From contig JACKGU010000002.1 of assembly GCA_020631855.1 (NCBI GenBank), positions 298,615 through 362,614 of the forward strand: a stretch of DNA of 64,000 nt, read 5' to 3'. Source of the DNA: Candidatus Nomurabacteria bacterium (lineage in GTDB: Bacteria > Patescibacteriota > WWE3 > UBA101185 > UBA10185). Below the pieces are notes generated by a model that had not been told where the DNA came from, did not search any database, and saw nothing but the letters and a program-made list of their open reading frames with translations. Positions 1-45,754 of the stretch are shown in pieces. The first letter of the stretch is position 1; the number at the start of each line of letters is the position of its first letter. The translations under genes were made by a program, and so were the position numbers.

Positions 1-2279
1 GAAGGAGCAATGGAAAGAAACTTTTTTATAGAAAATAGATTAGCGAGCTTTGGAGAAAGGGCGTCAATTATAAAACCGACACGTCTGTTTTGGGACAGTC
101 TGCATAAAATCTTATGAGAGAGTGCGCCGAATAAAACTATAAACCAAATCCGCATGCTTACTTTCATGACCAGCAAATACCAATGGAACGGCTGCCCTTT
201 GTCTTCTATAGCTTGCGTAGCCCTGTCAAGAACATGATATTGAATATATACATCATAAAATTCTCTCCCCAAGCGAGAAAACATATAAAAGTGCCAAGGA
301 CCAAAGACGGCCACAGCCGCACCAATCAGTATGAAAAAATGAATAATAACAGGCCTTAAACGATAAAGCTGTTTTTTAAACGCGATCAAATATGTTAAGT
401 GCAGAGCAACTATCGGCAAGGGTAACAAACCGACAATACCTTTTGTCATAACGGCTAGGCCTACACACAAACCTGCATAAAACATGAGGGCTTCTGTAGA
501 GGTCAGGGCTCTATACAGTTTCTGTAAGGGAATTAGAATTAAACTGAGAATCTTGGCTTCAGAAGAAATACTTTTACTCGTACCTGCAATGGGAACACGG
601 TCAAACAAACCAACAAAAAAGCTGCTGCAAAATAAATAATAAAACAGGAGGGATGCGGTGATAAAAAATGTTGTTGTAACATCAAGCATAGAAGCACGCC
701 CATAATAAATAAAAGATACATTTGTAAGTAATACCAGCGCACTAAAAAACCCGGCAAGCCTTCCATAAAGTTTTGTGCCAAAAACATATGTTAACAAAAC
801 TGTACCGAGACCAAACAATGCCGAAGGTAAACGCACCGCAAAACTTGTTATCGAGAATATTTTCATGCTCAAAGCCATGAGCCACATATACAAAGGGGGC
901 TTTTCAAGCCACAGCTCGCTAGAACTCCATTTTAAGAAAATGTAATCCCCGGTCTGATAAATGTTTTTAGCTATTTTTGCATAAATTGCCTCATCCCAAG
1001 GGATTAGATGATTAGAGCCTAGCTTTGTAAAAAATACAACAACGCCTAAAACAAAAAGCCCAAAAAACTGACTTCGAGAAGAATCAAAAACGTAATTAAC
1101 AGCCTTTGAAAATGTAAAATCTTTTCCTAAAACTCCGATGGTGTAAACAAAGTAAAAAGCTAAAATAATCCAAAAAAATTCATTATTGTAAGAATAAAAA
1201 ATACCCGCAGTTAACCAGCCGACAATAGCCCCGACCATGGCTGAAACTGTAAAATATGTTTTTGCATTTTTTAACTTCTGGCTTGCATAGAGCATTGCGC
1301 TCAACATCAAACCAATAACCGCAACAAAAGCTGCTAAACCTAGAGCGCCTGTTTCGGACAACAATTCACCCCAAATTGTGTGAGGAGGAACGCGGGTGTT
1401 AAATGCAGCCGGGTCACGTCCAAAAAATTCAGAAGCAATCTCTGTCTTGCTGAAATGCTCAAAAAACCCACCATAGCCGCCACCTATTAAGGGGTATTTC
1501 TCGAATATCTCCACGCTCCCCTTCAATAAAAGTACGTGAGAATCAAAAGAATCTATCCTGTAATGGAAATAGTCTTTAACCTTTGCTCTAAAAGGGCTCG
1601 ACTTAATGTTGTATTCTCTAACCAGCGGGATAGTCAAAAGAAAAAGAGTAAAAACTAACGCAAGAACACCTCTTAAGTGTAGCTTTCTGTAAATAAGAAG
1701 CATGCCAAAAATAAGTAGCGAAACAAAACCTGCAATCCAAGCGGTTCGAGAACTTGTAAGTAGCAATATAGCCGACATAGAAACAAGATAAATAAAATAT
1801 TTTAATCTCTCTTTGTAGGTTTCAGCAAAAAGAAAAAGAACTCCGGTAACAGGAAGTAACCCTGTTAAAAAGCCTCCAAAGTGATTTGTGTCCCAGAAAA
1901 GAGAGCCTACTCTAGGAGTATGGCCGGGAATATTCCACAAAGCCCCCATAATAAAATCGAATCTACTGTAAACAAGCACTTGGATAAATCCAAAAACACA
2001 AAGGTAAAAGGCGACGTTAATATAGTATTTAATAAATTCTAGGATTTTGTCCGGCTTATCTTTATAAACACTGTAAGTAAATATCACAAAAGCACAGGCG
2101 GTAGCAAAAAATGCCAATAAAGATACACTGGCACCTAAATTTTTTGTGTTTGAAATAGAAATAAGTCTGGCTAAAAACAAGAGTCCTAAAGATAAAACAA
2201 AGGGGTCAGAAATAAGAGCGGCTAATTTTTTATAATTTTTAATAAAATATAAAGTAGCATAAGCAGAAAAAGCTAACAT
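1..2279 (-). CDS. Bifunctional-looking polytopic membrane protein (partial, C-terminus lies beyond the window start). The N-terminal ~330 aa form an O-antigen ligase/Wzy_C-like domain. The C-terminal >430 aa form a PMT_2/ArnT-like (GT39-type) GT-C glycosyltransferase domain.
   Basis: I translated the minus strand by hand in the frame whose codon high end is congruent to 2 mod 3. It is open from 2357 down to position 1 with no stop. The ORF track does not list it because it has no in-window stop. Wzy_C-type motifs are 'RVGSLFWDTNHFGGFL', 'LLLTSSRTAWIAGFV' and 'HTIWGELLSETGALGLAAF'. PMT_2/ArnT-type motifs are 'IPWDEAIYAKIAKNIYQTGDY' and 'EKPPLYMWLMALSMKIFS..FAVRLPSALFG'. The first ATG is at 2279 (MLAFSAY), with a GTG at 2282 as an alternative start. 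Confidence 0.8.
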   Translation of the reverse strand, partial: MLAFSAYATLYFIKNYKKLAALISDPFVLSLGLLFLARLISISNTKNLGASVSLLAFFATACAFVIFTYSVYKDKPDKILEFIKYYINVAFYLCVFGFIQVLVYSRFDFIMGALWNIPGHTPRVGSLFWDTNHFGGFLTGLLPVTGVLFLFAETYKERLKYFIYLVSMSAILLLTSSRTAWIAGFVSLLIFGMLLIYRKLHLRGVLALVFTLFLLTIPLVREYNIKSSPFRAKVKDYFHYRIDSFDSHVLLLKGSVEIFEKYPLIGGGYGGFFEHFSKTEIASEFFGRDPAAFNTRVPPHTIWGELLSETGALGLAAFVAVIGLMLSAMLYASQKLKNAKTYFTVSAMVGAIVGWLTAGIFYSYNNEFFWIILAFYFVYTIGVLGKDFTFSKAVNYVFDSSRSQFFGLFVLGVVVFFTKLGSNHLIPWDEAIYAKIAKNIYQTGDYIFLKWSSSELWLEKPPLYMWLMALSMKIFSITSFAVRLPSALFGLGTVLLTYVFGTKLYGRLAGFFSALVLLTNVSFIYYGRASMLDVTTTFFITASLLFYYLFCSSFFVGLFDRVPIAGTSKSISSEAKILSLILIPLQKLYRALTSTEALMFYAGLCVGLAVMTKGIVGLLPLPIVALHLTYLIAFKKQLYRLRPVIIHFFILIGAAVAVFGPWHFYMFSRLGREFYDVYIQYHVLDRATQAIEDKGQPFHWYLLVMKVSMRIWFIVLFGALSHKILCRLSQNRRVGFIIDALSPKLANLFSIKKFLSIAP

Positions 2280-2445
2280 CACAAATCTTATAGGCAATAA
2301 ATTCCAGCTGTAAAAACTAAAAAGCTCTTTGTGAAGTAAGACCGAGCATAGCAGAATTATCTTCATTCCCTTTTCAATATCCAGTTTAAAAAGAAGTAAG
2401 GATAGCAAGGTTATTCCGAATAAAGAAAGAAGTTCAATAGACATA

Positions 2446-3591
2446 TTATTTCAGTAATTCATTATACACGTCGAAAATTTTATGAGCCGCGTTTTGCCAA
2501 GTGTACTCGCGCAGCATAAAAGACGGCACCTTTGGTCTATCCGCAAAATACTGTTCAACTACAGCGTTCTTTATCGATCTAATATCATTTGGGCTGCAGT
2601 AAGACACAAGATCGCCAAGATACTCTCTAGCTCTTTCGCCCGAAGCTACTGCATTAGAACCGCAGAAAAGAGCTTCGATACTTGTGAGCCCTGTAGTCTC
2701 AAACCAACTTGCTGAAACACACACCTTCGCTTTTCTATAAACCGCAGGCATTTGCTCATAAGGAACCTGATTAACAAAGGTTATCCAGCTATATCTTTTT
2801 AGAGCGAGGTTAAATCTTATAATATATTCCTGGTGCTTGAGTTTACTTTTTTTCCCGACAAAAACCAGTCTCAGATCCTTGCCTGTCTCTTCTCTTGCTG
2901 ATTTTACAGCATCAATTATACTTAGTTGATTTTTCCTTGCTTCAACTCGCCCAACGCACAGAATATAGTCTTCCATATCCTGCAACGCCTTTGGCATAAT
3001 TTGTTCTTTATCGTAGCCAGCAGAGTCTATGAATAGATCAGAAACTCCATTAGGTATTTTTTTCCATTTAAAATCTACGCCGTAAGAGGTTTTTAGATCA
3101 TGGGCCTCCAGCTCGGTCTGTACTAAAATATAATCCGATAAAGACAAAGCTTTTTTCTGAATATTAAATAAACCGAATCGTAAACTTTGAACAGTGGGAT
3201 AAATTTTCTTTGGCATGAAAAGTGATTTATAAACATTTTTCAATGTATCTCTTTTAAACTGATCTTTAAATACAGCCTTAGAGAGTCTTCTAAAATCAAA
3301 GGCGTATGTTTCGTCAAATAATTTTACCTCAGAAATTGAGTGGTGAATTGGTGAAAACACCAGCGGCTTACCAGACGACTTTATCGTCTCGGCGTACATA
3401 CTCGGGTCGGGGGTCCAGTCGAGCTGAAAAAGATGGACAAGATCGTAAGAATTATAATTACTAACATTGCCGGCTACGATTTCAACGTCAATACCTAGCT
3501 TTTTCAGCTCTCGGGCCGTATTCTCAATTTGAATTTTATCTCCGCCGCCCGTATCAAAAAGCTCTACACGCGCCTGCATTAAAACTTTCAT
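2446..3591 (-). CDS. Glycosyltransferase family 4 (GT-B, RfaB-like)
   Basis: ORF track 2446..3615. The GT4 C-terminal motif is 'FETTGLTSIEALFCG'. The likely true start is the internal Met (MKVLMQARVELFDTGGG) at 3591, directly abutting the stop of the upstream gene. Confidence 0.85.
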   Translation of the reverse strand: MKVLMQARVELFDTGGGDKIQIENTARELKKLGIDVEIVAGNVSNYNSYDLVHLFQLDWTPDPSMYAETIKSSGKPLVFSPIHHSISEVKLFDETYAFDFRRLSKAVFKDQFKRDTLKNVYKSLFMPKKIYPTVQSLRFGLFNIQKKALSLSDYILVQTELEAHDLKTSYGVDFKWKKIPNGVSDLFIDSAGYDKEQIMPKALQDMEDYILCVGRVEARKNQLSIIDAVKSAREETGKDLRLVFVGKKSKLKHQEYIIRFNLALKRYSWITFVNQVPYEQMPAVYRKAKVCVSASWFETTGLTSIEALFCGSNAVASGERAREYLGDLVSYCSPNDIRSIKNAVVEQYFADRPKVPSFMLREYTWQNAAHKIFDVYNELLK

Positions 3592-4745
3592 TCTGATTCT
3601 TTCTTTCTTACACATTTTTTATACAAATCTTCATAGCTACTCACGAAATCTTCTAAGCTGTAATTTTTCCTTACCACAGTATGAGCGGCAACAACTCTCT
3701 CTTTTGTGTTTAGTCCGTCAAGGCTATGAAAAAGCTCATACATTTTTACACATAAATCCTCGCTGTTCCCAGATTCAAAATACTTAACCGTACCTTTAGA
3801 AACTTCTTTCAAGACGGGTAGGTCAGAACATATGAGAGGAATATACATGTACATTGCCTCTATAAGAACAATACCGAAACCTTCTGCTAAAGTCGGGAAA
3901 ATAAACATATCGAAAGAAGCTAAATATTTAATTTTATCTTCTTCAATGAATCGTCCTGTAAAAGTAACTTTGTTAGAAATACCTAGATCTTTTGCCTGCT
4001 GCTCTAGAGACTCTTGTAAATAACCTCCGCCCGCAACCAGCAGATGTGACTTTGAGAGCTCAGGATGTGACTCCAACAAATTCGCAAAAGCCGACACTAA
4101 AAACCTATGACCTTTCTCTTCCGTAAGACGGCTTATATTACCAATAATAAAAATATCCTCAGGAAGCCCATGTTTCTTTAAAATCTCAGCCCTGTATTTA
4201 TTTTTCTGGGATTCATTTAGCTTCAGCGCATCAAAATTAACGGAATTACCTATAATCTTTAACTTCGACAGAGGAATTCCCTCCTCAAGCTTTACTTTTA
4301 AAGTCTCATTTGTCAGTGCAATTTCAGAAGAAGAAAGTAGTCTTACAGCCATGGCATAACAAATGCTATATATCTTTCTTTTATAGACAGGCACTTGCCA
4401 CTGGGAATATGGAGTATGAATGTGAGAGATACGACATCGGACTCCTGCAAGCCTGGAGGCAATAAGAGTATTTGCTACAGCCCTCAACTCATTGCAATGA
4501 ACAACCTGAATGTTATGTTTTTTTATGTATTTTATCTGCCTGTAAATATATAACGGATCTATGTCGTATTTTACTTCTACCGGAACGACGACTGCTCCGG
4601 CATTCTGGTATATCTTAGCTAGAGGTCCCTGTCGACACCATATGTGCACCTCATGGCCTCTAGACATCATTCCCTCGGCTAAGTCCAGGACGTATTTCTC
4701 CATCCCACCTATATTTGCTGAATCCAATGTGTATAAAATTTTCAT
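3588..4745 (-). CDS. Glycosyltransferase family 4
   Basis: N-term 'MKILYTLDSANIGGMEKYV' and C-terminal 'FPTLAEGFGIVLIEAM' (the GT4 EX7E-type motif region). Confidence 0.9.
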   Translation of the reverse strand: MKILYTLDSANIGGMEKYVLDLAEGMMSRGHEVHIWCRQGPLAKIYQNAGAVVVPVEVKYDIDPLYIYRQIKYIKKHNIQVVHCNELRAVANTLIASRLAGVRCRISHIHTPYSQWQVPVYKRKIYSICYAMAVRLLSSSEIALTNETLKVKLEEGIPLSKLKIIGNSVNFDALKLNESQKNKYRAEILKKHGLPEDIFIIGNISRLTEEKGHRFLVSAFANLLESHPELSKSHLLVAGGGYLQESLEQQAKDLGISNKVTFTGRFIEEDKIKYLASFDMFIFPTLAEGFGIVLIEAMYMYIPLICSDLPVLKEVSKGTVKYFESGNSEDLCVKMYELFHSLDGLNTKERVVAAHTVVRKNYSLEDFVSSYEDLYKKCVRKKESE

Positions 4746-4813: not shown

Positions 4814-6082
4814 TTACCGGGCAGAGTCTTTACCAGATAGAAAATCTGATATTGCTTTTAACTGTTTAGATACTTTTATATCCCAAGTATTATTTTCTGC
4901 TACAGCCACCCTCGTTTTAGCTTTTACGGGATCCTTGTCTAAAACTGCCTGCCTCACCTTGTCCACGAACTCTTCTTTATCTTTAGCAACATACAAAACA
5001 TTCTCCAAACCTTCGTAAGCCGGAAGATCAGAAACTACAACAGGACACCCCGTGGAAAGAGAATTAAAAACCTTTACCGGAAAACATCCGTTATATGTAT
5101 ATTCGTTTATCACATAAGGAATTATGTATGCGTCAAAATAGTGGGTTAACTCCGCCGTAACTTCAAATGGTCTAGATCCAACACACATAACATTCTTTAA
5201 AGATTTAATCTTAACAACGGCGGGGTTTGAATCTGAAATGTAAAAATTTCCAATTAAGTAATACGTTATTTCGGGAGTTTGTTCAGCCAAGTATATAAAA
5301 AGATCAGAGTCAAATTTATATGCATCTATTGCTCCGCTATATCCTACAAGAGGACGGCTCACATTATTTAGTTCAGAAGGAAGAGATTCTGGTTTTTTAG
5401 AATATATTTCAAAATCACCTGCATTTGGGGTGTATATAATACGTTTTGTTTTTTCTGCAAAGTTTTTGTAAAGCAAAGGATGCGAGGCAAACATCAAATC
5501 AGCACGCTTTGCTAACTCATTTTCACGAAAACGAACCCACTCTTTTCCGCCCAAACCGTGCTGTTCAATGTGCTCTTTCAACCAGCGGTCTGCAAGTTGA
5601 ATTAATTTTACAACGCCTTTATTTGTAACATCTTTTCTTGCATATTCCGGAAAAAATTCGTACGCATCAACAACATCATAAATCAACACATCGGGTTTTA
5701 AATTTTTATCTAAATCCCATAACCTAGGAAAATCAAAATGATAAACCCACAATACCCTTTTCATATTTTCCAGCCCCTGTTTCTTTATGTATCTACTTAA
5801 TAGCCAGCAATGAATTTTATTTTGCAAAAACAAAAACGGCGAGAAGTTAAATTGATTTACAGGGGAATACACAGTCAAATTAGAGTTAATTTTTGAAAAA
5901 ATCCATTTTCTATTTTTCAACATCTGTTTTAAGAATTTAAAACGAGCAGGAGGATCTATAAAAATAACCTTATGCCCTAAAGATGCTGCCTTTGTCATTA
6001 CCAAGTGCTTATTAGTTTTATAAGGTATATCAAAAAATTGATTGGACAGACATATTATTAAATATTTTTCATCAGAAGACAT
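4814..6082 (-). CDS. Glycosyltransferase (GT-B fold, GT4/TuaH-like)
   Basis: The 422-aa ORF has a C-terminal nucleotide-sugar-binding half of the Rossmann type: 'NVMCVGSRPFEVT..GCPVVVSDLPAYEG'. Confidence 0.7.
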   Translation of the reverse strand: MSSDEKYLIICLSNQFFDIPYKTNKHLVMTKAASLGHKVIFIDPPARFKFLKQMLKNRKWIFSKINSNLTVYSPVNQFNFSPFLFLQNKIHCWLLSRYIKKQGLENMKRVLWVYHFDFPRLWDLDKNLKPDVLIYDVVDAYEFFPEYARKDVTNKGVVKLIQLADRWLKEHIEQHGLGGKEWVRFRENELAKRADLMFASHPLLYKNFAEKTKRIIYTPNAGDFEIYSKKPESLPSELNNVSRPLVGYSGAIDAYKFDSDLFIYLAEQTPEITYYLIGNFYISDSNPAVVKIKSLKNVMCVGSRPFEVTAELTHYFDAYIIPYVINEYTYNGCFPVKVFNSLSTGCPVVVSDLPAYEGLENVLYVAKDKEEFVDKVRQAVLDKDPVKAKTRVAVAENNTWDIKVSKQLKAISDFLSGKDSAR

Positions 6083-6084
6083 AG

Positions 6085-7539
6085 CTATTCAAAGACAGAC
6101 GGCTCGCAAACCTCGCACGCCCTTTCCAGATAACCTATCTTTACTAGCATTCTTCTTATGTTAAATGCCGCCTCGCTGTCTCTAATTGACCACAACCAGG
6201 AGGTGTCGGAGTAACCTTTATCATAAGCGGCATGCCATATTCCATCAAAAAATACCAATCCCATAAGCTGTACTGCAAATGAAACACAAACTAAAAGATA
6301 GAACGGCTTACGAAATTTCTCCTTGGCTGTAGAAGTTAAAAAAGGTATTAAAGCCAAAACCATGTAAGGCATGACGTCAGACGCCATTCTATAACCAAAA
6401 GACCACCCCCCATACCAATGTTTCCATTTACCTAAAACTATTGTGTGCATAAAAACAATTGAAATAAAAGCAACATACTGATAGTCCATTCCCGAAAAGT
6501 TTCTATTTTTTATTTTCCTAACTAGAAAGAATATTGACACGAAAATAAATAAAAAAACAGGAGAATAGACAAGAATACCCTTACTTGGAGATACCCACAA
6601 CCCAAAAAACCCGTTTACAACTTGAGACTTCCAGCCCACATCAATTTGCTCTACGTAACCTTGATTAGCAAACGATCTATAAAATTTCCCGGTGTAAAAT
6701 ATAAGAAATCCTAGAGCAGGAAATAAACCAAAAACAAATGTAAACATCGATCCCAGCAACATTCCAAGATTTTTGTACTTAGAAAAATAAATAACTATAA
6801 GAAGCACGAACCACGGAAGAACAGCTGTAGGCCTGGTAATAAAAGCTAATCCGAAAAACATTCCGGACATAAAGATGTTAAAAAAATATGAGCTCGCACC
6901 CTTAGCACTAAGATTCGGAGCTTCAATCTCTAATGCCCTGTTAAAAAATAGCAAAGCGAGCAAAGAAAAAAGTTGCAAAGTTCCAAACTGCCACATTGCC
7001 TGAGAAACAACTGCAAAATTAATAGTACAAAACAAATAAATAAATGTTAAAAAAACAGCTTTTTTACGCATGCCCGGCAAATAATATCTTTCGATCAAAT
7101 ATAAAAAAACAACTCCTGCCGCCGCCATAGTTAAAGCGCTTGAAAGGTGTGAAAGAACGTATAAATTATGCCAACTTACCGGCATGCCAAGCAGCAGTGG
7201 GGGCATAAAAACGGGCAATGCCGTGATCGCGGGGGTTATTGGAAAAGCCGATAAATAATGAGTTTGACCGGATTGATTATCGAGAGCTTTTTTTAAATAA
7301 AAAGGAGTTAATCCAAGCTCTTGCTGCTTGTCGTCGGGCTGGGGGTACGAATCAACCAGCATGTCGTAATATGAATCTAGATATAAAGTTCTCTCTTTTG
7401 AAATTGCAACAGCAGTGAAAATAGAGGGAAGAGTATCTTCAGATTGAATTGGCATTGGATTTATGCCTGTTCTATAAAGTAATACCCACGGAGCGAAAAA
7501 AAGCAAAGTATATAAAAGAAAAGACTTTATAAACCTCAT
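6085..7539 (-). CDS. Polytopic integral membrane protein, probable GT-C-type glycosyltransferase
   Basis: The 484-aa ORF has about 11 hydrophobic segments. It lies inside the glycosyltransferase operon. The C-terminus has a Cys motif 'CEVCEP'. Confidence 0.6.
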   Translation of the reverse strand: MRFIKSFLLYTLLFFAPWVLLYRTGINPMPIQSEDTLPSIFTAVAISKERTLYLDSYYDMLVDSYPQPDDKQQELGLTPFYLKKALDNQSGQTHYLSAFPITPAITALPVFMPPLLLGMPVSWHNLYVLSHLSSALTMAAAGVVFLYLIERYYLPGMRKKAVFLTFIYLFCTINFAVVSQAMWQFGTLQLFSLLALLFFNRALEIEAPNLSAKGASSYFFNIFMSGMFFGLAFITRPTAVLPWFVLLIVIYFSKYKNLGMLLGSMFTFVFGLFPALGFLIFYTGKFYRSFANQGYVEQIDVGWKSQVVNGFFGLWVSPSKGILVYSPVFLFIFVSIFFLVRKIKNRNFSGMDYQYVAFISIVFMHTIVLGKWKHWYGGWSFGYRMASDVMPYMVLALIPFLTSTAKEKFRKPFYLLVCVSFAVQLMGLVFFDGIWHAAYDKGYSDTSWLWSIRDSEAAFNIRRMLVKIGYLERACEVCEPSVFE

Positions 7540-7662: not shown

Positions 7663-9864
7663 TCAGCGATTTCTAATAAACACCGGGCCACTGGGATGTG
7701 GAATCCAAAGATTAAAACCTCCCACTATTAATCTCTTTTTTATTAGCTCATTGATAGGCTCGCTGACATCTAACCTACCGTTTTTTATCTTCGATTCTAT
7801 TTCTACGTCTTCCTTGTAATCACCAAATATCACGAGTATTTCTTTAGAGGGTTCAACATTAAATACACTACTCAGCTTTCCCGGAACAACAATACCGGTA
7901 CCCGTCAGAACATTGGCCCCGAACTCGGTAATCAATTTTGTACCATAGCTACCGCCAACACCGGTCAAATAAACTACAAATTTGCCGTCAATTTCGAGGG
8001 GGAAATCAAAAGGCACAACATACTCACGACTAATGTTAGACGGCACTGCGGAAAACTCTTCTGGGGTCATTGAAACATCATAAATTCCCTGCTTATCGTC
8101 TATGGCCGAACAGCCGGGAAAATAAACTAACTTGTTCGTATGAGACTTTAATTTACCATCGCTGCCAAGATAAAAAATTGTTGCTGAAACATCATCGCCC
8201 GGATCCAAGTCATTACAATCTAAGGTTATTTTTAATTCTGTGCCTTCCGGTCTAATGAGAGAGGGAGGGTCAAAAAGAAATAATGAGGAATACTCTTTGC
8301 CCTTAACTTTCGATACGTCAACACTATCTTCTAGTAGCTTTTTGGCCATAGAACTAGCTTTGGTGTAGTAAAAGACATACGCACTTTCTGTAGAGAGATC
8401 TCTTATGTTTTTGTGCACGAGTTTTTTAAAACCAGGGTAATGTATAACAAAATTATCTGCCATAAAAACGTTTTCCGGAGCTTCAATGTTTAAAGGCTCC
8501 ACCAGAACGCGTTTTCCGAGCTGTTTATAGTACGGGAGCATGACAACAGGATCGCGCAAACCAATAAACTGCTCATATTTCCAATCACTGCTGGGGCGAT
8601 CGAGATATCCTACAAAAAACAAAACGACCGACATAGATAATACGGACAGCGCTGTCAGAGAAATTTTGTGCACCGGAGACAGTGATTTAGTTATATTATA
8701 TTTTGATTCAATAACTAGCAGAGAAATGAGGCATAGCGAGAACAAGACAGAAAAAAAATACAATTCAAAATAAATGTGGGCAAGAGAAAAGAGTCCGACG
8801 ATCGGCACAGGAAGCAGGAATAAAATCATAGAGAATACCTTTGATTTGTTAAATTTTATTGGTAATAAAATTAATTTAGATTTTCCGGATAAGAAAAACG
8901 AGATGGCGGCGGGGAGCTGCAATAATAGCGAGGTAAACAACCAACACAATATAAGCATAGAGAGTATAAAAGAAAGTGAGGCTGAGAAAGAGTTAAAAGA
9001 CGGGGCCCTGTATAAAAGCTGAAACATATAGGGCAGGCTTACCGTGCCAACATCTTTTAATGAAATTAACAACACTAATGACAGCAAAACAAACAATATT
9101 CCAATATTGCTGAGTGTTATGTAATCTCTTACGCGCTCTATGTATGAGATTATCGACAGCAAAGCTTTTTTATAAAGCAAGGGATCAAGAAAGAGTTTGG
9201 GAGAAATTAAATATCTCTTAATCGTACTGCCCAAAGCTAGATAAACAAAGGAGAGAAGTGCTCCTGTCGCTGCGACTTCGAGACCGAAGAGATAGTCGAC
9301 ATTGAACAAAGGAGGGTTCTTCTCGATAAGATCTACGTTTGTTTTCTCAAAACCATTTGCTCTCGCAACTTCCCTTGCCTGCAGATAGAGCGAGAGGGAC
9401 TCACGTAATTTCGGGGCTATCAGAAAAGATTCAGGTATTATTGTGGCCAGATACTTACCTGAATCAATCTCCACCAAATTAACTGAAACGAGAGATGCGA
9501 AATTTTTAACCGGGACAGAGACAACGAATTCTTCAGAAAAAACGTTCTGACGATTGCAAGAGAAAAGATCTTCAATCGAAGCTTCATCATCACAAACTAT
9601 AATAGTGTCGCTAACAGGACGGCGCACCGCTTGCCATAAGTCGTCGTCATCTATCATAGAAGTTAGTAATACAACATAGCTGTCTTTTGAAGAATTTCGA
9701 TTTTGCCGGCTATTCTGAGAGTTTTCGAGAACATTTGTTTCATTTATATCCAGACCAACATTGCTGAAGTAATCAACATAATACTCATAAGGATCCCCGC
9801 CGGCACTTATGGATCCTACTAATAAAAACCATACTATAAAGTAGGCGAAAATTGCCCTAATCAT
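7663..9864 (-). CDS. Large membrane protein of unknown function. It has an N-terminal signal/anchor, an Asp-rich ectodomain, a central multi-TM block and a ~300-aa C-terminal extracytoplasmic domain.
   Basis: The 733-aa ORF begins with a hydrophobic N-terminus 'MIRAIFAYFIVWFLLVGSISA'. It contains 'DDDDLW' and a TM cluster around residues 190-420. No motif I recognise. Confidence 0.6.
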   Translation of the reverse strand: MIRAIFAYFIVWFLLVGSISAGGDPYEYYVDYFSNVGLDINETNVLENSQNSRQNRNSSKDSYVVLLTSMIDDDDLWQAVRRPVSDTIIVCDDEASIEDLFSCNRQNVFSEEFVVSVPVKNFASLVSVNLVEIDSGKYLATIIPESFLIAPKLRESLSLYLQAREVARANGFEKTNVDLIEKNPPLFNVDYLFGLEVAATGALLSFVYLALGSTIKRYLISPKLFLDPLLYKKALLSIISYIERVRDYITLSNIGILFVLLSLVLLISLKDVGTVSLPYMFQLLYRAPSFNSFSASLSFILSMLILCWLFTSLLLQLPAAISFFLSGKSKLILLPIKFNKSKVFSMILFLLPVPIVGLFSLAHIYFELYFFSVLFSLCLISLLVIESKYNITKSLSPVHKISLTALSVLSMSVVLFFVGYLDRPSSDWKYEQFIGLRDPVVMLPYYKQLGKRVLVEPLNIEAPENVFMADNFVIHYPGFKKLVHKNIRDLSTESAYVFYYTKASSMAKKLLEDSVDVSKVKGKEYSSLFLFDPPSLIRPEGTELKITLDCNDLDPGDDVSATIFYLGSDGKLKSHTNKLVYFPGCSAIDDKQGIYDVSMTPEEFSAVPSNISREYVVPFDFPLEIDGKFVVYLTGVGGSYGTKLITEFGANVLTGTGIVVPGKLSSVFNVEPSKEILVIFGDYKEDVEIESKIKNGRLDVSEPINELIKKRLIVGGFNLWIPHPSGPVFIRNR

Positions 9865-10280
9865 ATTTTCCCCCTTAGATAATTTCTAATAAATAGACAG
9901 GTAGAAACAAGCACAAACACCAGCGCCAGCAATCTGAATAAAGAAAAAGAGCCTGTTATCCAAACAAGAGGCAGTGCAAATGCAACAAAATATAGAACAA
10001 AATTTAAATACCACATATCCACAAAAAACAAAAACAAGAGAAATAAAGAAAGTACGAAAATAAGAGCCGCAATTAGTAAAATATTTACAAAGTCAAAGCG
10101 AATAAGATTGCAAACCGAAATGTAAAATATAACACCGATGTATCCCGATATAATATAGTTTGCGAGCTGCACGATACTTCGACGCATATCTAAAGAGCGT
10201 ATTAATATAAAAAAAGGTAAAAAAGTTAAAAAAAGGTAAAAAAAAGATTTTCCCTCTAACAGCTGAGTAAAGGAACACAT
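9861..10280 (-). CDS. Small 4-TM membrane protein, unknown function
   Basis: The 139-aa ORF is all hydrophobic helices. Its stop overlaps the start of the next gene by 4 nt. Confidence 0.5.
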   Translation of the reverse strand: MCSFTQLLEGKSFFYLFLTFLPFFILIRSLDMRRSIVQLANYIISGYIGVIFYISVCNLIRFDFVNILLIAALIFVLSLFLLFLFFVDMWYLNFVLYFVAFALPLVWITGSFSLFRLLALVFVLVSTCLFIRNYLRGKI

Positions 10281-10283
10281 ACC

Positions 10284-12101
10284 TTAATTATAACAACTAC
10301 TGACAAGAAAACTATCTTTTTCTATTTTGTAGAGAATTATTTCTTGGGAAAAACTATCTTCTCCAGAAATGTTTGTTTTATAAACATAAAGCTGTTTTAG
10401 AAATTGATTATGAGTAATAAAATCGACGATGCGCGAAGACAACGACGAAATGTTGTAAACCAAAACATACCCCACGCCCAAATCAATGGCCTCCTGCATT
10501 CCTTCACAGGAAACTAGATTTTCCGTGAACTTATCAGACTCAAACCCAAAACTACCTTGCCCGAAACCTCGGGGGTTAATTATGGGCCTCTGGGTGTATG
10601 AAATCCAAAACATATATTCATTAACATTGCTAAAGGGGTATACAGCTATAACTGAATCTTTCGGTAAATTTTCCTTAATATAAGAAAGGATGCTCGGGGG
10701 ATATGAGTATTTTGTAACCTTTAATGGAATGTATTTTTCGGAGACCGCAAAAACGGTAATCACAAAAACGAATAGTGAAATTATAAAGGCTCTGGTTCTT
10801 TCACTCATTTTTGGAAACTTTGCCGCTATAGTAAAATCTGCCCATGAATTAAAAAAAAGAAGGCCATAGCCTGCAAATATTAAAACTATGATGTTTATTA
10901 GTTCAGAGAGTCTAACCAGAGACCTAAACATCGGAAACATGAGATACGACACGTAACTTGGTGTATAAATTTTATGTAGTGCGATAGTGAAATACGGAGG
11001 CATAGTGAGAGAAAATAACACAACTGTAGAAAGTGCAAGCGAAATAAGAATATTTTTGTGCATCAGATAAACCTCCTTACGATAAACAGGGCGAGCTCGG
11101 GCCTGACTGGTATAAGCCTTACTGGTTCTGCTAAACAAAGAAAAAACCTTACGACAAGCAACAAAACTAAGACGACCACGAGGAAATAAAGTCCTACACA
11201 CTCCCAGAAGCGATAGGAATAGGACGGAATATCCTATATAACTTGCGGAATGTTCCTGTTTGAAAAAATTTCCTGTTAACCAATATCCCCAATCATCTTG
11301 CAGATAAGAAAGAGCGCTCGAAGACAACTTTCCCAATAAGGGGTTGTCTATTGGTGGAAGTAAAAAGTACCAAGGTCTTGAAGTGAAGTAAAAAAAATCC
11401 TCCAACGTTCTGGCCGGAGTTGTAAAATCCGTTAGAGAGGTCCTTAATAGAAGTAAATAATTCCGTAAAAAAAATACACCCAGAAGAAAAAAAGGTACTA
11501 AAGATATCAAAGAACTTTTGAATAATAAGAGAAGCCGTGATTTATAACGCTTATACAATAAGGAATAGATCGATATGTAAATAGCGTGAAACATGAGCAA
11601 AAAAAATCCATAGTAATTACTAAAAACAGTTACTAGCCCAAACAGGGCCCCTAATATTAAAGATCTAAACCCCCAACCTTTTTGTTCTAATCTTTCGTTA
11701 TAAAATATTGTCGCATACATGCCTATAAGCAACAGCCAGTATTGGCTAAGGTCGTGGTGACTTCGCGCATGATAATAAAAATACGGACTGCCAAGAAGAA
11801 TTACTGAAAGTAATAACGAAAGATAAGAATTTCTAATAAAGGCCTTGTAAAATTTATAGCCCACGATAAGACCCATAATAGCTGCGGTCAGTGTAAAGAT
11901 ATTATAAACCGCGATTGAAGGTGCAAATCTCGATAGAAAAAAAAATAAATCGAAGCTCAAAGGCTGAGAATTTTCATACGGAACAACAGGATAAGATCTA
12001 TACATCGGGAAAAATTTTATGCTGTTAGAGCCAAAAATCCTATAAAGGTTGCCCAGGGCTATGTGATAAACATTATCTTCGAGCACTCCAAGTAATAACA
12101 C
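10284..12101 (-). CDS. Polytopic membrane protein with a C-terminal extracytoplasmic domain, probably GT-C-like/YfhO-like
   Basis: The 605-aa ORF has multiple TM segments and a soluble ~180-aa C-terminus. Its start overlaps the upstream stop by 1 nt. Confidence 0.6.
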   Translation of the reverse strand: MLLLGVLEDNVYHIALGNLYRIFGSNSIKFFPMYRSYPVVPYENSQPLSFDLFFFLSRFAPSIAVYNIFTLTAAIMGLIVGYKFYKAFIRNSYLSLLLSVILLGSPYFYYHARSHHDLSQYWLLLIGMYATIFYNERLEQKGWGFRSLILGALFGLVTVFSNYYGFFLLMFHAIYISIYSLLYKRYKSRLLLLFKSSLISLVPFFLLGVFFLRNYLLLLRTSLTDFTTPARTLEDFFYFTSRPWYFLLPPIDNPLLGKLSSSALSYLQDDWGYWLTGNFFKQEHSASYIGYSVLFLSLLGVCRTLFPRGRLSFVACRKVFSLFSRTSKAYTSQARARPVYRKEVYLMHKNILISLALSTVVLFSLTMPPYFTIALHKIYTPSYVSYLMFPMFRSLVRLSELINIIVLIFAGYGLLFFNSWADFTIAAKFPKMSERTRAFIISLFVFVITVFAVSEKYIPLKVTKYSYPPSILSYIKENLPKDSVIAVYPFSNVNEYMFWISYTQRPIINPRGFGQGSFGFESDKFTENLVSCEGMQEAIDLGVGYVLVYNISSLSSRIVDFITHNQFLKQLYVYKTNISGEDSFSQEIILYKIEKDSFLVSSCYN

Positions 12102-13639
12102 TATTGATTCCTAAAATATGTAATATCTATAATTGCCGGATCCGAGAAAAAGCGAGTAGGAGAAAGTATAGACTGGTACTTAATAGTTGACCCGTCTGTC
12201 GAAAAACGATCATAATCGATATCAGTTTCAACATTATAAAGATTTTTATAATTAGAGATTATATAAGTTCTTGTCCATATGTTGTCAAGCACAGGAATGC
12301 CTTTGTAAGTTCTAATATCTGTGCTTAGATTGATCAGGGTATTTTCTGAAATTTCCGTATGCTTAATAAATTCTGCGAACTCTAGTTGCAGCTCAGACGC
12401 TCGTATATAGTGCGCAAGAGAAATGTTATTCATAATAGTAAAAAACAGTAAAAAGAGAAAAATAACTTTAAGACCTAAAACTCTTGCCTTATCCAAGATA
12501 ATAGCAGAACCTAATGTCGCTAGCAAAAGAAGGTGCGGGAGGTTTATTCTATCTCCCATAGGCGCAGAGCTTGTGCTGTAGTTACCTATTACCGGGACAA
12601 AAAATGACAAAATAAATGAGAAATACAAAATCCACCGAGAAATTGGTGGCACATCGCACAAATATTTACTGCTGTGATATTTCTTTCTCACATAGACGTA
12701 AAGCGTATACAAAAGATAAAGAAAGGCGACCAACAACAAGAGCACAGAAGAGAAATATTCTAAGACAATCAGATCGCGGTAATTCCTCAAGATATCAGAA
12801 ACAAACTTCAAGGCATCTGGCCCAAAGAAGAAATTACTAAACAACGTAATCTGCTCCAGCATGAGTTTTAAACTATCGGACCTTATTAGAGAGGCCTCTT
12901 TTACAAACTCTGTAGCATTAATAAAAACAAGCGCAGTCCTCTTGAACAGTAAATAACTAAAAAGTCCTAGGGGATAAGGTAATACGTAGATGACCTTTTT
13001 GTAAAAACTCTCTTTGGAGAATAAAATTACCAACACTATCAGCGGCATCAAAGCAATAGAATTCTCATATACGAGAATAGAAATAAATGCGAATAAATAG
13101 GATAAAAATGTACTATAAAAGATACTATATTTAATACTGAAGTACATTGCTATAGATATAAATAACAAAGAGAAAAGAGACATCTGGGCAGATATCCAGT
13201 AAAGGCTTGCGGTATGGAAAGGGGCGCAAATGAACAGAAGAATCGCAAAGAAAGCAACCTCCTTGCTACCTAGAACTGCCGTAAAAAAGTTATAGAAAAA
13301 CCAACAAGCAAGAGAAAAAATAAACACATTCACTATAAAGTACAACGCGATATTTCCCTGGAAAAACCCTATCTGCAAAGGCATTATTGTTAACCAGAAC
13401 GGCCGCTGAATTAAATACGGACCGCTTTGCCAAAGAAAAAAATCAAAAGCATCAGAAACAGACTTTGAATTCAATAAAAAAACGGCCCTGAACGTATCCC
13501 AATCGTCAGAAATCAAACCCAATCTGCTGATGTTGACCAAACCATACTGAAAAAATGTAAAAATAAAGAAAATTGGAAAGACAAACTTATCTCTATTCTG
13601 ATATAAAACTGAGGATGCTTTTTCCAAGAATATTTTCAT
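12101..13639 (-). CDS. Polytopic membrane protein, probably GT-C-like
   Basis: The 512-aa ORF has about 12 TM segments plus a C-terminal soluble tail. Confidence 0.6.
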   Translation of the reverse strand: MKIFLEKASSVLYQNRDKFVFPIFFIFTFFQYGLVNISRLGLISDDWDTFRAVFLLNSKSVSDAFDFFLWQSGPYLIQRPFWLTIMPLQIGFFQGNIALYFIVNVFIFSLACWFFYNFFTAVLGSKEVAFFAILLFICAPFHTASLYWISAQMSLFSLLFISIAMYFSIKYSIFYSTFLSYLFAFISILVYENSIALMPLIVLVILFSKESFYKKVIYVLPYPLGLFSYLLFKRTALVFINATEFVKEASLIRSDSLKLMLEQITLFSNFFFGPDALKFVSDILRNYRDLIVLEYFSSVLLLLVAFLYLLYTLYVYVRKKYHSSKYLCDVPPISRWILYFSFILSFFVPVIGNYSTSSAPMGDRINLPHLLLLATLGSAIILDKARVLGLKVIFLFLLFFTIMNNISLAHYIRASELQLEFAEFIKHTEISENTLINLSTDIRTYKGIPVLDNIWTRTYIISNYKNLYNVETDIDYDRFSTDGSTIKYQSILSPTRFFSDPAIIDITYFRNQ

Positions 13640-18387: not shown

Positions 18388-19671
18388 CTACTGCTTACTA
18401 GCTGAATAAACAAAGCGGCCCGAGCTGAAAAAATAAACCGTAACAGCTAAAAACAGAGCAAGGCTAACGAAAACATTAACATTTATTACCTCGGTCAAAG
18501 AGTCGTGGAAAAGTTCAATGAGCACAAACTGAGCAAAAGATGCAGGCAATAAAAACCAATATACCTTGGTTTTATCTGTTGCAAGAAAAAACATAATCAT
18601 AAAATACGTCAATATGTACAAAGCCACAAAAATGGCAAAGTGCGGTAAATATTCGGCTGCCTCAGAAAAATGATTACCGAAAAGAGTTTTAATAACAAGA
18701 GGCGAGAAAAAATAAAAAAACCCAAGACCTAAAGAAACCACCGACGCCTGCAGTACAAAAAAATGTCTAAATCTTCTCATATAATCTCCGCCGGATGCAT
18801 ACAATTGAGAGATTTGCGGGTACATGACAACGGTTATGATGCTTGCTCCAAATAAAAAAACCTTTCCCACAGTCACAATACCAGAATAAATACCTGCGTC
18901 CTGAGGATCAAAGTGATGCTTAACTAAAAGTACATCGACATTATTTAAAAGGTTGAGGCCCAAAGTGACAAAAACAGTAGTGATAGCAAACTTAAAAACT
19001 TCCTTAAAGTGCTCATCAGCTATTTTAACCTCATGAGAAGTAAAATTTTTCTTTAATAATAAGAGAGATATTCCATAGCTCGCCACAATAGCAATAGACA
19101 TTCCCGTAAACGCCCCGCTAAGTCCGGTTTTTAAAACGACGACAAACAACAACGCAAGTAAAAGCCTGAGAAAGCTGCTAAAAGAAGTAAAAAAAGCAAA
19201 AGCTTTGAATCTCAACAAGCCCTGAAGGTAAGAAGACGGGGCCATTATTATAAAGGTCAAACATGTAAAAACGCCGAATATAAAAACAAGTAATTCGTGA
19301 TCAATTTTTAAATAACTGCTCAGAGTATACCTGGAAACTACTATTAAAAGAAAAGAATAGAATCCTGCTAAAAGCGAGAAGAGGCTAAATTTCTTGAAAA
19401 GCAAGGTTAGAACATCAAATCTGTTTGCAACACGAAGTTCAGTTACTTTCTTAATAAGTGCTGTTACCAAAGCACCAATAGGAACGCCAAAAATAACAGA
19501 CAGAGACAGTAATGCATTGAATGTACCGTAATCCTCAACCGACAGAAACCTACCTAATAAAACCTGCAATAAATATGAAAAAACACTACCTAAAAGTGTT
19601 CCGGCACTCACTACCACTGTCCCATACAAGAGCTGACTATCTCTTAGTCTTCCGATTTTTTGTAACATCAT
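18388..19671 (-). CDS. Polysaccharide biosynthesis protein/flippase (Wzx-like, MOP superfamily)
   Basis: The 427-aa ORF has about 12 TM segments. The N-term 'LLYGTVVVSAGTLLGSVFSYLLQVLLGRFLSVEDYGTFNAL' is typical of the Polysacc_synt family. Confidence 0.8.
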   Translation of the reverse strand: MMLQKIGRLRDSQLLYGTVVVSAGTLLGSVFSYLLQVLLGRFLSVEDYGTFNALLSLSVIFGVPIGALVTALIKKVTELRVANRFDVLTLLFKKFSLFSLLAGFYSFLLIVVSRYTLSSYLKIDHELLVFIFGVFTCLTFIIMAPSSYLQGLLRFKAFAFFTSFSSFLRLLLALLFVVVLKTGLSGAFTGMSIAIVASYGISLLLLKKNFTSHEVKIADEHFKEVFKFAITTVFVTLGLNLLNNVDVLLVKHHFDPQDAGIYSGIVTVGKVFLFGASIITVVMYPQISQLYASGGDYMRRFRHFFVLQASVVSLGLGFFYFFSPLVIKTLFGNHFSEAAEYLPHFAIFVALYILTYFMIMFFLATDKTKVYWFLLPASFAQFVLIELFHDSLTEVINVNVFVSLALFLAVTVYFFSSGRFVYSASKQ

Positions 19672-19674
19672 AGG

Positions 19675-21378
19675 TTAGTTTTCTCTTCCGCAGTCAAAAA
19701 TTCTACAAGATCTATAAACATTATATAACTTTACTCCCCTTTCAGATATACTTCCTAGGTACTCAATTTCAAACCTGTCCTCATCGGCAGAAGTATCATC
19801 CCACACCGGATAAACAAAATAGGCAGTTTTAACCGCTTGTGGGGTTAAGGTTTTTATAGTAGCCCATGCCCCAACTTCCCTAATAAAAGGCCAGACCTGC
19901 GTATAATATTTTTCGGGGAATCCAACAAGCAACCTTTCGTTTATAGTTGATTTGTAGAGAAGGCCGTCGAGTGACTCTTCTTTTGCAAATGGTTCAAAGT
20001 CAGCCCACACAACAGGATCAGAAAAGAAGCCTTTAATCTGCTTTTGCCCAATCAACCACTTCGGCTCAAGAACTTTAATTCCGACACGAAGACCGCCGAA
20101 ATACGGACTATAGTAAGAAAAATAATCGCCGTTTAAATAAAGGTAAGTAAAAAATGCAGGCAGTATAAAACATATAGCGACAAGATATTTATACACAGCT
20201 TTAATTTTTGTGACAAATAACTCACGAAAAAAATACTCGAGCCCCACTGCAGATGTCATAAGCTGCAGAACCAGCGCAGGAAGAATATACCTATCCAACT
20301 TCTTTGTTGGAATAGTCATTTCTATAAAATACATGGCCGAGAAGAACAGCGTGTACTTAATAAATTTTTTTTTGCTATTCGAAAGCTTCTTATATGAAAA
20401 TAAAGTAAGCAAAAAGCCCGGAATCATGTATAACGAGGATCGCAGCAGCAAAACGACAAAATAAAAAGTTGGCCCGGGATCATCAACTAGTTCTCCAAAA
20501 TATAACTGGATGTGTCCCTCCTCGACTCCGGTATCAAATATCCCCTTTGAAAGCTCATTCAAAACAGAGACGGGCTGTACCCACATAGCAGGCCATAATA
20601 AAATGAAAAATACTGATACTAAAACTAACCACGGAATGTAATATTTAAGTGACGAGATTATATTTTTGGAATTAAAGTACAGCATTAAACCAAAAGTCGG
20701 CAGTATAATTAAAGCCGATGTTTTTGTTAGAACAGCACATGCGGCAAAAAAAGAAGCGAATAGAAAGCTTTTGTTGTGGTAGAATTTTTTATTTTGCGGG
20801 GCAACATCACTTTGATGTATGAAAGCTAAATAAAACCACAGAAAGGCAGCCAGCATGAAGGTAGCCAGAAGACCTTCAAGATGAACTACTCTGGTTAGCG
20901 CTATGTAGAAAGGTTCGAAATTCAACAGCAAAACAAAAATTACTGCCAGGCTTATTCCGGCAATTTTTTTTAGAGCAAAAAAAATTGCCGCAACCGCCAA
21001 ACCCAAAGCTAACACAATTACAATTTTTTGAAAAAAATGCAAAATAAAGACTGTCTGTATATCATTGTCCGGCGGAGAAAATCCTAGAACTACTTTATAA
21101 TAAAAGCTCTGAAGTTTAACGCCTAATGCGCCCAACCACATTAAAGTTACTCCAGGATGATAACGCTGCAAAGTTTTCTCAAAAGAAAGAGTAAAGATAC
21201 CTTCACCAAAATCGTATATTCTGGATTTCCACTTCCATACATCTGTGTTAAACATGTCATAGCCTAAATTATTAAGTCGCGTTAAAACAAACAACAGAAA
21301 AGCGAACATTTCGTAACGCAAATCAGATAAAACCTCGACGATCTTGTTTTTTACTTTACGTAAAATTAACACTGTCAT
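19675..21378 (-). CDS. GT-C-like polytopic membrane glycosyltransferase (paralog A)
   Basis: It shares 'FLLTRL..LG.D', 'YHPGVTLMW', 'LEPFYI' and 'LWPAMWVQP' with the gene at 22615..24456. Confidence 0.65.
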   Translation of the reverse strand: MTVLILRKVKNKIVEVLSDLRYEMFAFLLFVLTRLNNLGYDMFNTDVWKWKSRIYDFGEGIFTLSFEKTLQRYHPGVTLMWLGALGVKLQSFYYKVVLGFSPPDNDIQTVFILHFFQKIVIVLALGLAVAAIFFALKKIAGISLAVIFVLLLNFEPFYIALTRVVHLEGLLATFMLAAFLWFYLAFIHQSDVAPQNKKFYHNKSFLFASFFAACAVLTKTSALIILPTFGLMLYFNSKNIISSLKYYIPWLVLVSVFFILLWPAMWVQPVSVLNELSKGIFDTGVEEGHIQLYFGELVDDPGPTFYFVVLLLRSSLYMIPGFLLTLFSYKKLSNSKKKFIKYTLFFSAMYFIEMTIPTKKLDRYILPALVLQLMTSAVGLEYFFRELFVTKIKAVYKYLVAICFILPAFFTYLYLNGDYFSYYSPYFGGLRVGIKVLEPKWLIGQKQIKGFFSDPVVWADFEPFAKEESLDGLLYKSTINERLLVGFPEKYYTQVWPFIREVGAWATIKTLTPQAVKTAYFVYPVWDDTSADEDRFEIEYLGSISERGVKLYNVYRSCRIFDCGREN

Positions 21379-45667: not shown

Positions 45668-45754
45668 GTTAGTAGCTTTATATATTTATATTAAGAATGA
45701 CAAGAAACAGCCGTTGTGTCAAATATATCTCTCTGAATTAAAACGAAAATCCTT

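Follow-up and report, generated by a model that had tools for sequence, protein, structure and literature searches.

The described systems that lie closest to the gene studied here are the O-antigen ligase WaaL (CAZy GT121; 7TPG, from Cupriavidus metallidurans), the undecaprenyl-P-L-Ara4N:lipid A transferase ArnT (CAZy GT83; 5EZM and 5F15), the bimodular ligase WadA of Brucella, the enterococcal polysaccharide antigen (EPA) system of Enterococcus faecalis, and the protein glycosylation enzymes PglL/PilO and PMT (GT39). The gene opens a 64,000-nucleotide stretch of DNA from a Candidatus Nomurabacteria bacterium (assembly GCA_020631855.1, contig JACKGU010000002.1, positions 298,615 to 362,614; hereafter the window), lies on the minus strand and runs off the window at its first position. 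It encodes an in-frame fusion of an N-terminal Wzy_C module with a C-terminal PMT_2 module, as an earlier note on this DNA had proposed from the letters alone and as hidden Markov model (HMM) scores, a profile match to ArnT, predicted structures and 77 of 80 related loci now bear out. We conclude that a single protein probably covers two outward-facing steps of surface-glycan assembly in bacteria without lipopolysaccharide (LPS).

The N-terminal module shares with WaaL a polytopic fold, a long external loop near the C-terminus, a Wzy_C match and counterparts of Arg-191 and His-313. It differs in having no detectable sequence similarity to solved WaaL, in the uncertain counterpart of the second arginine and in being fused to a second membrane glycosyltransferase; moreover it must use a different acceptor, since its host, a member of the candidate phyla radiation (CPR), lacks both an outer membrane and lipid A-core. 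For the C-terminal module ArnT is the best match in both sequence and structure and its catalytic residues are kept, whereas the score falls far under the ArnT equivalog cut-off, the histidines H265 and H267 are out of register, the host has no lipid A and a WaaL-like module precedes the enzyme.

The modules themselves come from known families, and the fusion of a ligase with a glycosyltransferase has one described precedent. In WadA (GT25 plus GT121) the GT25 domain adds a core sugar and the ligase domain then attaches the O-antigen, and its authors called it the first bifunctional O-antigen ligase. WadA likewise unites an O-antigen-ligase-type module and a second glycosyltransferase of the same pathway in one polypeptide. 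However, its partner is a soluble, cytoplasmic, N-terminal GT-A-type GT25 domain with a nucleotide sugar as donor, the two sites of WadA are on opposite membrane faces and it acts on LPS, whereas in the window protein the partner is a C-terminal polytopic GT-C enzyme of the kind whose donor is a lipid-linked sugar, and the outer face is predicted for both sites. Neither the Pfam scan nor the AlphaFold2 (AF2) model gave a GT25 or other soluble glycosyltransferase domain in the fusion, which is thus not of the WadA class.

The EPA system (ligase homolog OG1RF_11710, flippase 11709, GT-C enzymes EpaP and EpaQ) offers a likeness in a different respect, namely an LPS-free envelope in which a WaaL-like protein handles a Wzx-flipped undecaprenyl diphosphate (Und-PP) unit. 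It stands for monoderm bacteria, where such proteins are proposed to work together on wall polysaccharide, GT-C enzymes being believed to attach the extracytoplasmic sugars; these assignments are themselves proposals, and the ligase-like and GT-C proteins of EPA are, however, separate and resemble the fusion at family level only. PglL/PilO and PMT belong to the same broad families as the two modules (Wzy_C; PMT/PMT_2 with a DE motif in loop 1), and yeast PMTs are secondary structural matches, whereas the fusion has no PglL-specific or MIR-type Pfam match and its C-half is much closer to ArnT. Our literature search found no published description of a Wzy_C-GT-C fusion. The earlier note had not recognised the architecture either, although the gene has been public for years under generic names; WadA is a different bimodular ligase. 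After WadA, the fusion would be a second kind of O-antigen-ligase-type enzyme with two functions, and the first to pair both GT-C structural subclasses in one chain with the active sites on the same membrane face, one half using a lipid-PP-oligosaccharide and the other a lipid-P-monosaccharide as proposed donors.

An uninterrupted gene conserved across WWE3

Translation of the minus strand of nt 1-2279 gave 759 stop-free codons, in agreement with the uninterrupted open reading frame (ORF) of more than 750 codons, leaving the window, that had been reported for it. The start implied at 2279 had to be moved. The same frame stays open upstream and reaches an ATG at 2444, one base past the TAA (2446-2448) of the preceding GT4 gene, which gives a fragment of 814 codons (nt 3-2444) running off the window edge; P0001, a 100% identical NCBI/ENA gene call from an independent assembly, begins with the same MSIELL. 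The junction of the modules (residues 442-457, nt 1074-1121) contains neither a stop nor a frameshift of the kind that would have split the ORF into two genes, and it is identical in P0001. An open frame of 814 codons in DNA of 37% G+C excludes a chance origin.

Full-length fusions in relatives have about 945-1050 residues, so the window copy is short of its C-terminal ~150-190 residues. The last ~35 codons before the edge depart from the family: the consensus FFSxAKSKLVWYIIP is absent and a hydrophilic DALSPKLAN stands where relatives have a transmembrane (TM) helix. A frameshift was rejected as the cause, the SKLVWY motif being encoded in no frame of nt 1-330. As these codons fail to align with the family in any frame, the 3' end of the gene at the window edge is uncertain; the divergent end (nt 3-107) could have arisen by rearrangement or by genuine divergence, or it could mark the end of a chimeric contig.

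Among the best 120 homologs in the database, which are 42-50% identical, almost all have a length of 900-1080 residues, the fragments P0001 and P0025 excepted. Every one carries PF04932 and PF13231, with PF02366 in all but P0001. Where named, they are called 'glycosyltransferase family 39 protein', 'O-antigen ligase family protein' or 'phospholipid carrier-dependent glycosyltransferase'. When one genome was scanned for each species, at least 104 relatives appeared, labelled WWE3, Patescibacteria or generically Saccharibacteria, among them the closed genome CP006914.1 and one curated complete genome. We then compared 80 related loci and found a single uninterrupted ORF across the junction in 77 (median 969 residues, stop to stop). 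The exceptions are L070, which meets a contig end, and L068 and L079, which are apparently frameshifted or rearranged. In these two (L068 10001-12198, L079 1577-4166) the fusion is broken into several frames or its high-scoring segment pairs are out of order, likely through assembly or indel errors or as pseudogenes. The spacing from H355 to D484 is 124-134 residues family-wide, and almost all checked members, at 32-45% identity, still have the SR, H..W.E, WDE (in one case WDD) and EKPP motifs. The search for the same architecture in related genomes that the earlier note had suggested thus returned it at both locus and species level, and we regard the fusion as one genuine gene conserved across WWE3.

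An assembly or sequencing artefact that joined two neighbouring genes could draw on the occurrence of a split arrangement in one other lineage, on the atypical end of the window copy and on the state of L068 and L079. It is nevertheless effectively refuted already by the continuous ORF in 77/80 independent genomes, closed and curated ones included, by the conserved linker length and by the identical junction in an independent assembly.

The modules also occur in other combinations. An exhaustive search with the N-half alone returned 61 clusters with E<=1e-30 and 106 when the limit was set at E<=1e-10. This tight family is made up mostly of fusions of ~920-1070 residues, with stand-alone Wzy_C proteins of 428-460 residues, compact Wzy_C+PMT_2 fusions of ~845 residues, proteins of ~700 residues without the DE motif and one variant of 1160 residues. 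The split version comes from one unrelated metagenomic genome (L086 8001-10932; JGI 3300009105, contig Ga0117905_1000016, 285 kb). There the order is GT4, Wzy_C (460 residues), PMT/PMT_2 (497 residues), GT4, Wzy_C (428 residues) and Wzx. The Wzy_C and PMT_2 genes are co-directional and 56 nt apart, in the module order of the fusion, with a short inverted repeat (GGTCGTC-TAGG-GACGACC) in the spacer; the second Wzy_C paralog adjoins Wzx 2.8 kb downstream. The split PMT_2 protein is 32% identical to the window C-half (E=3e-49) and has its motifs in common. The two modules are thus also found side by side as unfused genes, arranged as in the fusion, which is classic evidence of functional coupling.

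The two modules, their conserved residues and their topology

In the Pfam scan both domains lay above their curated cut-offs, as the earlier note had suggested checking: Wzy_C reached 50.5 bits (cut-off 31.7, E=2.6e-13) and PMT_2 (PF13231) 43.2 bits (cut-off 26.1, E=6e-11), with PMT (PF02366) at 34.5 bits (cut-off 22.7, E=2e-8). The full-length homolog P0003 scored higher (PMT_2 61.0, PMT 45.2 bits). At E<=1 a chance MC6 match was the only addition to these three. Wzy_C matched 24/24 N-halves tested. The domain had been placed in the N-terminal third of the protein; its identity stands, while its extent grows to the N-terminal half, a module of ~441 residues. All four motifs quoted in the earlier note were found in the translation (TSSR233TAW, H355TIWGELLSETGALG, PW-D484-E485-AIYA and E514-KPPLYMW).

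In order to place the N-half residues in register we aligned E. coli K-12 WaaL to C. metallidurans WaaL (CmWaaL) and used shared Pfam Wzy_C model coordinates, the model giving the same register for E. coli WaaL and the window protein. E. coli R215 and CmWaaL R191 lie in a T-x-(S/T)-R motif ('ltqtR', 'NGTR') whose window counterpart is TSSR233. E. coli H338 and CmWaaL H313 lie in H-x4-E-x4-TG-x2-G, the same pattern as around H355. The arginine and the histidine stand 122 residues apart in both CmWaaL and the window protein, and 123 apart in E. coli WaaL. In CmWaaL the Und-PP phosphates are bound by Arg-191 and Arg-265, and the proposed acceptor activator is His-313; within CAZy clan GT-C1 this position is His in ligases and Asp/Glu in polymerases (PMC10920833). 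The invariance of H355, taken with this rule, favours a ligase-type rather than a polymerase-type N-half. A further loop, P-R178-VGS-x-FW-D185-x-N187-H188, may contribute to the active site as well.

The C-half could be aligned with a solved enzyme directly. A family profile of 54 members matched C. metallidurans ArnT (5EZM) at E=4.7e-41 over 333 positions, which, with the PMT_2 score, upholds the PMT_2/ArnT-like GT-C assignment first made from the motifs. ArnT D55/E56, E84/K85, D158, K203 and R270 align with D484/E485, E514/K515, D588, K668 and R741, all invariant in the family. In ArnT the conserved residues serve as acceptor or metal ligands, contact the carrier phosphate or the sugar, or form a salt bridge, E84/K85 contacting metal and lipid-carrier phosphate, and in yeast Pmt1 D77/E78 is the GT-C catalytic DE motif (PMC7801869). 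The counterpart of ArnT Y345 is almost invariant in full-length relatives; its place in the window copy is in the end that diverges or is cut off. Two further ArnT residues, H265 and H267, which we take to be the Zn-site histidines, are not kept in register: in the 5EZM alignment Y736 and V738 stand there, with an invariant H737 between them. The NCBIfam ArnT equivalog NF009784 was matched only partially and missed its cut-off (62.2 bits vs 567). The C-half is ArnT-like without being an ArnT ortholog.

A PDB search with the family profile returned ArnT only, and no PMT, at E<=1, which favours an ArnT-like over a PMT-like assignment. With PMTs also below ArnT in the structural ranking, the name 'glycosyltransferase family 39 protein' is not well founded; it and 'O-antigen ligase family protein' each cover only half of the protein.

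Structure prediction, another check that the earlier note had proposed, gave a WaaL-like N-half and an ArnT-like C-half. AF2 models reached pLDDT 83 and pTM 0.81 for the window protein, and 88.7 and 0.88 for the full-length P0003. The best Foldseek match was ArnT (5F15/5EZM), at E=5e-6 with the truncated window model and at E=2e-13 with P0003 (TM-score 0.66-0.67 normalised to ArnT, ~575 columns), where it takes in the C-terminal soluble domain. The N-half was matched to WaaL (7TPG_B) at E=3e-4 and TM-score 0.64 with the window model and at E=1.8e-5 and 0.62 with P0003, both normalised to WaaL; yeast PMTs (Pmt1/2/4), oligosaccharyltransferases and ALG enzymes ranked lower. The N-module model has the ~12 TM helices and the long external loop near the C-terminus that are typical of WaaL, and its loop 276-366, bearing H355, corresponds to the WaaL external loop. 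The models thus predict a WaaL (GT121-like) fold with R233 and H355 kept, followed by an ArnT fold in which the DE, EK, D-K and R positions are kept.

Past loop 276-366 the model places helices at 357-390, 394-413 and 422-439, then the first GT-C helix at 456-472 and the DE loop, i.e. four predicted membrane crossings between the two catalytic loops. Loops 386-397 and 441-457 are positively charged, the latter with three K/R, in contrast to loops 417-421 and 477 onward, a pattern that agrees with the positive-inside rule. We infer a cytoplasmic linker between the modules. The four helices together with this charge distribution would put both active sites outside the cytoplasmic membrane, and both should accordingly face outward in the modelled protein. 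In the full-length P0003 model the region beyond the window contains the final GT-C helices together with an alpha/beta domain.

It is conceivable that one module alone is active and the other is a degenerate scaffold or a substrate-binding partner. A sister class of ~700 residues (P0155, P0157 and similar) has the WaaL-like N-module and a C-terminal extension of ~270 residues without a Pfam match, in which PSYSEVIF replaces PWDEAIY; the extension may be either a GT-C that has degenerated or another kind of partner module, and in such relatives (e.g. P0157) a partner can evidently degenerate or be replaced while the N-module is kept. In the WWE3 clade, however, the catalytic positions of both modules are invariant at 32-50% overall identity, which indicates purifying selection on both, and a single active module is very unlikely.

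A different use of the same folds, one that the earlier note had suggested, would be protein O-glycosylation, a PglL/PilO/WsaB-type N-module and a PMT-type C-module acting on secreted, S-layer or pilin proteins. O-oligosaccharyltransferases fall in the same Wzy_C group and use the same histidine. The PMT model is above its cut-off, yeast Pmt1, Pmt2 and Pmt4 are among the structural matches, and CPR bacteria, which have no LPS acceptor, are rich in pili and surface proteins (PMC6744442). On the other side, the C-half is far closer to the lipid-directed ArnT, with no solved PMT at E<=1; no candidate glycoprotein substrate gene is conserved beside the fusion in the neighbourhoods of related loci; and no PglL-specific or MIR-type model matched in the Pfam scan at E<=1, where HMMER filters may hide very weak matches. 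PglL-specific Pfam models presumably exist besides Wzy_C. We consider such a function improbable.

The conserved gene block and the proposed reactions

In the window the fusion closes a long co-directional operon, preceded by three GT4 genes and a polytopic membrane protein of 484 residues (Table 1). In relatives it is followed by an oppositely oriented Wzx, a GT4, a small Bac_transf priming transferase, DUF4012 and RecO, a part of the block that here falls beyond position 1 of the window. The conserved order is GT-C-like, three GT4, fusion, Wzx, GT4, Bac_transf, DUF4012. The 484-residue protein is matched weakly (E=4.6e-6) by the NCBIfam model of LA_3751/LA_3752, a putative glycosyltransferase family; its retention in 57/80 loci makes it part of the same core pathway, in which it might act either as the missing polymerase or as another GT-C-like enzyme. 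DUF4012 is found in capsule and exopolysaccharide clusters, with an enrichment in CPR and Gram-positive bacteria, and CPR bacteria have no Gram-negative envelope (PMC6744442). Hence the block looks like a Wzx-dependent surface-glycan pathway that cannot yield LPS.

Table 1. Coordinates of the fusion gene, its conserved sites and the genes around it.
Feature	Position	Strand	Basis
Fusion gene, 5' part, 814 codons from ATG 2444	1..2444	-	Translation; gene call of P0001
WaaL/Wzy_C-type polytopic module, residues 1-441	1122..2444	-	Foldseek match to WaaL 7TPG_B; Pfam Wzy_C
Pfam Wzy_C (PF04932) match, residues 219-374, model positions 2-149 of 149	1323..1790	-	
Hallmark loop P-R178-VGS-x-FW-D185-x-N187-H188	1881..1916	-	Invariant in fused and stand-alone relatives
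T-S-S-R233-T-A-W; R233 = counterpart of CmWaaL Arg-191 / E. coli WaaL R215	1737..1757	-	Motif and Pfam register; invariant
H355-x4-E360-x4-T365-G366-x2-G369; H355 = counterpart of CmWaaL His-313	1338..1382	-	Motif alignment; invariant
Short positively charged linker, residues 442-457, small helix 445-453	1074..1121	-	AF2 helix order; loop charge
ArnT/PMT_2-type GT-C module, residues 458-814, cut by window edge	3..1073	-	ArnT profile; Foldseek; Pfam
P-W-D484-E485-A-I-Y-A, first external loop = ArnT D55/E56, yeast Pmt1 D77/E78, GT-C catalytic DE motif	978..1001	-	5EZM alignment; invariant
E514-K515-P-P-L-Y-M-W = ArnT E84/K85	882..905	-	5EZM alignment; invariant
Conserved C-module site	675..689	-	5EZM alignment; residue roles (PMC7801869); family alignment
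M-T-K668-G = ArnT K203	438..449	-	5EZM alignment; invariant
Y-H737-V-L-D-R741; R741 = ArnT R270	222..239	-	5EZM alignment; invariant
Last ~35 codons of fusion ORF	3..107	-	Off family consensus; low model confidence
GT4 glycosyltransferase directly upstream	2446..3615	-	At this position in 62/63 loci with enough flank
Second upstream GT4	3588..4745	-	Kept in 61/63 loci with enough flank
Third upstream GT4	4814..6082	-	Kept in 56/63 loci with enough flank
484-residue polytopic membrane protein, no Pfam match	6085..7539	-	57/80 loci, ~4.2 kb upstream of fusion
Wzx flippases, two	18388-19671, 25379-26881		
Stand-alone PMT/PMT_2 GT-C genes, three	19675-21378, 21375-22631, 32113-33927		
Divergent PMT/PMT_2 paralog	22615-24456		
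LPG_synthase_TM protein	24437-25372		
DUF2079 gene	26897-29089		
UDP-sugar dehydrogenase	38999-40411		
GT2 + GtrA_DPMS_TM gene with DAD motif	41259-42392	-	

We lean towards a bifunctional extracytoplasmic enzyme whose ligase-like half moves a flipped Und-PP-oligosaccharide en bloc to a non-LPS acceptor and whose GT-C half adds one sugar. In such a scheme the small Bac_transf primer and four GT4 enzymes would build an oligosaccharide on Und-PP in the cytoplasm and Wzx would flip it to the outer face. The WaaL-like module would then transfer it en bloc to an acceptor necessarily other than lipid A-core, given that WWE3 and other CPR bacteria have no Gram-negative envelope, and the ArnT-like module would add one sugar from a polyprenyl-P-monosaccharide to the same acceptor or product. 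That sugar might be the attachment point for the ligase, as with the GT25 domain of WadA, or a decoration of the ligated glycan, as the earlier note had suggested, and the two are equally possible. Either way the fusion would hold two sequential extracytoplasmic steps together.

Several observations weigh against this proposal. Its donor and other substrates, its acceptor and the order of its reactions are all inferred, from the fold, motifs and synteny that we observe. The window copy, truncated and with its divergent last ~35 codons, might be damaged. The His versus Asp/Glu rule is a correlation across CAZy families and no proven discriminator. The second WaaL arginine (CmWaaL R265, E. coli WaaL R288) has an ambiguous counterpart in the N-half: R296 is invariant only within WWE3 fusions and not in stand-alone relatives, while H303 is invariant in all relatives and is put at the R265 position by a gapless register from a conserved Pro. 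An N-half profile found no match among PDB sequences, solved WaaL included, at E<=10, and hhalign of this profile against the single sequence of E. coli K-12 WaaL gave a probability of 1.7% and an unusable alignment. Lipid A-core transfer is not expected in CPR, which have no Gram-negative envelope, so that membership of the N-half among the WaaL ligases can only hold at the level of predicted fold and mechanism.

The remaining objections to it concern a polymerase. The N-module may be a Wzy-type polymerase of flipped Und-PP units, the GT-C half adding a side-branch sugar to the growing chain or transferring it onward. The conserved block has a priming transferase, GT4 enzymes and Wzx, yet no other recognisable Wzy polymerase; Pfam Wzy_C and clan GT-C1 take in polymerases besides ligases (PMC10920833); and the two Wzy_C paralogs of the split locus are what would be expected if one were a polymerase and the other a ligase. 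The window protein also has weak NCBIfam matches to IctB and polymerase models, including TIGR04370, 'oligosaccharide repeat unit polymerase' (E=3.5e-4). However, this match reaches 19.7 bits against a cut-off of 40, the clan polymerases have Asp/Glu where the WaaL-type H-x4-E-x4-TG-x2-G motif of the fusion has its invariant histidine, WaaL is the best solved structural match of the N-module, and no chain-length regulator (Wzz or polysaccharide co-polymerase, PCP) was seen among the genes annotated around the fusion. We judge the polymerase unlikely, while keeping it in view.

A more specific form of the bifunctional scheme can be put forward tentatively. WadA, whose GT25 domain primes the attachment made by its ligase domain, provides a model in which the fusion might be the core of an undescribed 'prime-and-ligate' route to surface glycoconjugates in LPS-free bacteria, its coupled WaaL-like module attaching an entire Und-PP-oligosaccharide to a primed sugar. 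If true, this would make the fused gene an envelope enzyme that defines the WWE3 lineage. The surface glycans of CPR/Patescibacteria are almost unexplored by experiment, though their surfaces are thought to mediate host attachment. A lineage-wide gene in a compact conserved block, which could be transplanted to a glyco-engineering host, offers a directly testable entry to CPR surface glycobiology.

The wider glycan island and the rest of the window

A single glycan-assembly island takes up almost all of the first 42 kb of the window (1-42392). Its genes lie nearly all on the minus strand, and for a small CPR genome it is an unusually large portion. In all it has about ten GT4 and seven GT2 genes, with an S-adenosylmethionine-dependent methyltransferase and the other genes listed in Table 1, and at least four of its genes other than the fusion encode PMT-like GT-C proteins. 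A recent duplication of one of the window's other PMT_2 genes was rejected as the origin of the C-half, the sole match covering 64 residues (E=0.003). The product of 41259-42392 could be a polyprenyl-P-sugar synthase, a candidate source of donor for the GT-C enzymes of the island including the C-half of the fusion.

Four consecutive ORFs at 7663-13639 on the minus strand (733, 139, 605 and 512 residues) are all predicted polytopic membrane proteins. None of the four had a Pfam match and the three scanned against NCBIfam (733, 605 and 512 residues) had none there; the 605-residue ORF has a faint DUF6311 match only, in precomputed annotation. They are poorly conserved, occurring in 0-26 of the 80 related loci.

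ARAGORN found no tRNA or tmRNA genes in the whole window. At the island edge a minus-strand gene (42672-43694) encodes a CAP (cysteine-rich secretory protein) domain protein. Beyond it, also on the minus strand, a deoxyhypusine-synthase-family gene (E=3e-92) adjoins an arginase/agmatinase-family gene at 44621-46624, a pair that looks polyamine-related and unconnected to the glycan island.

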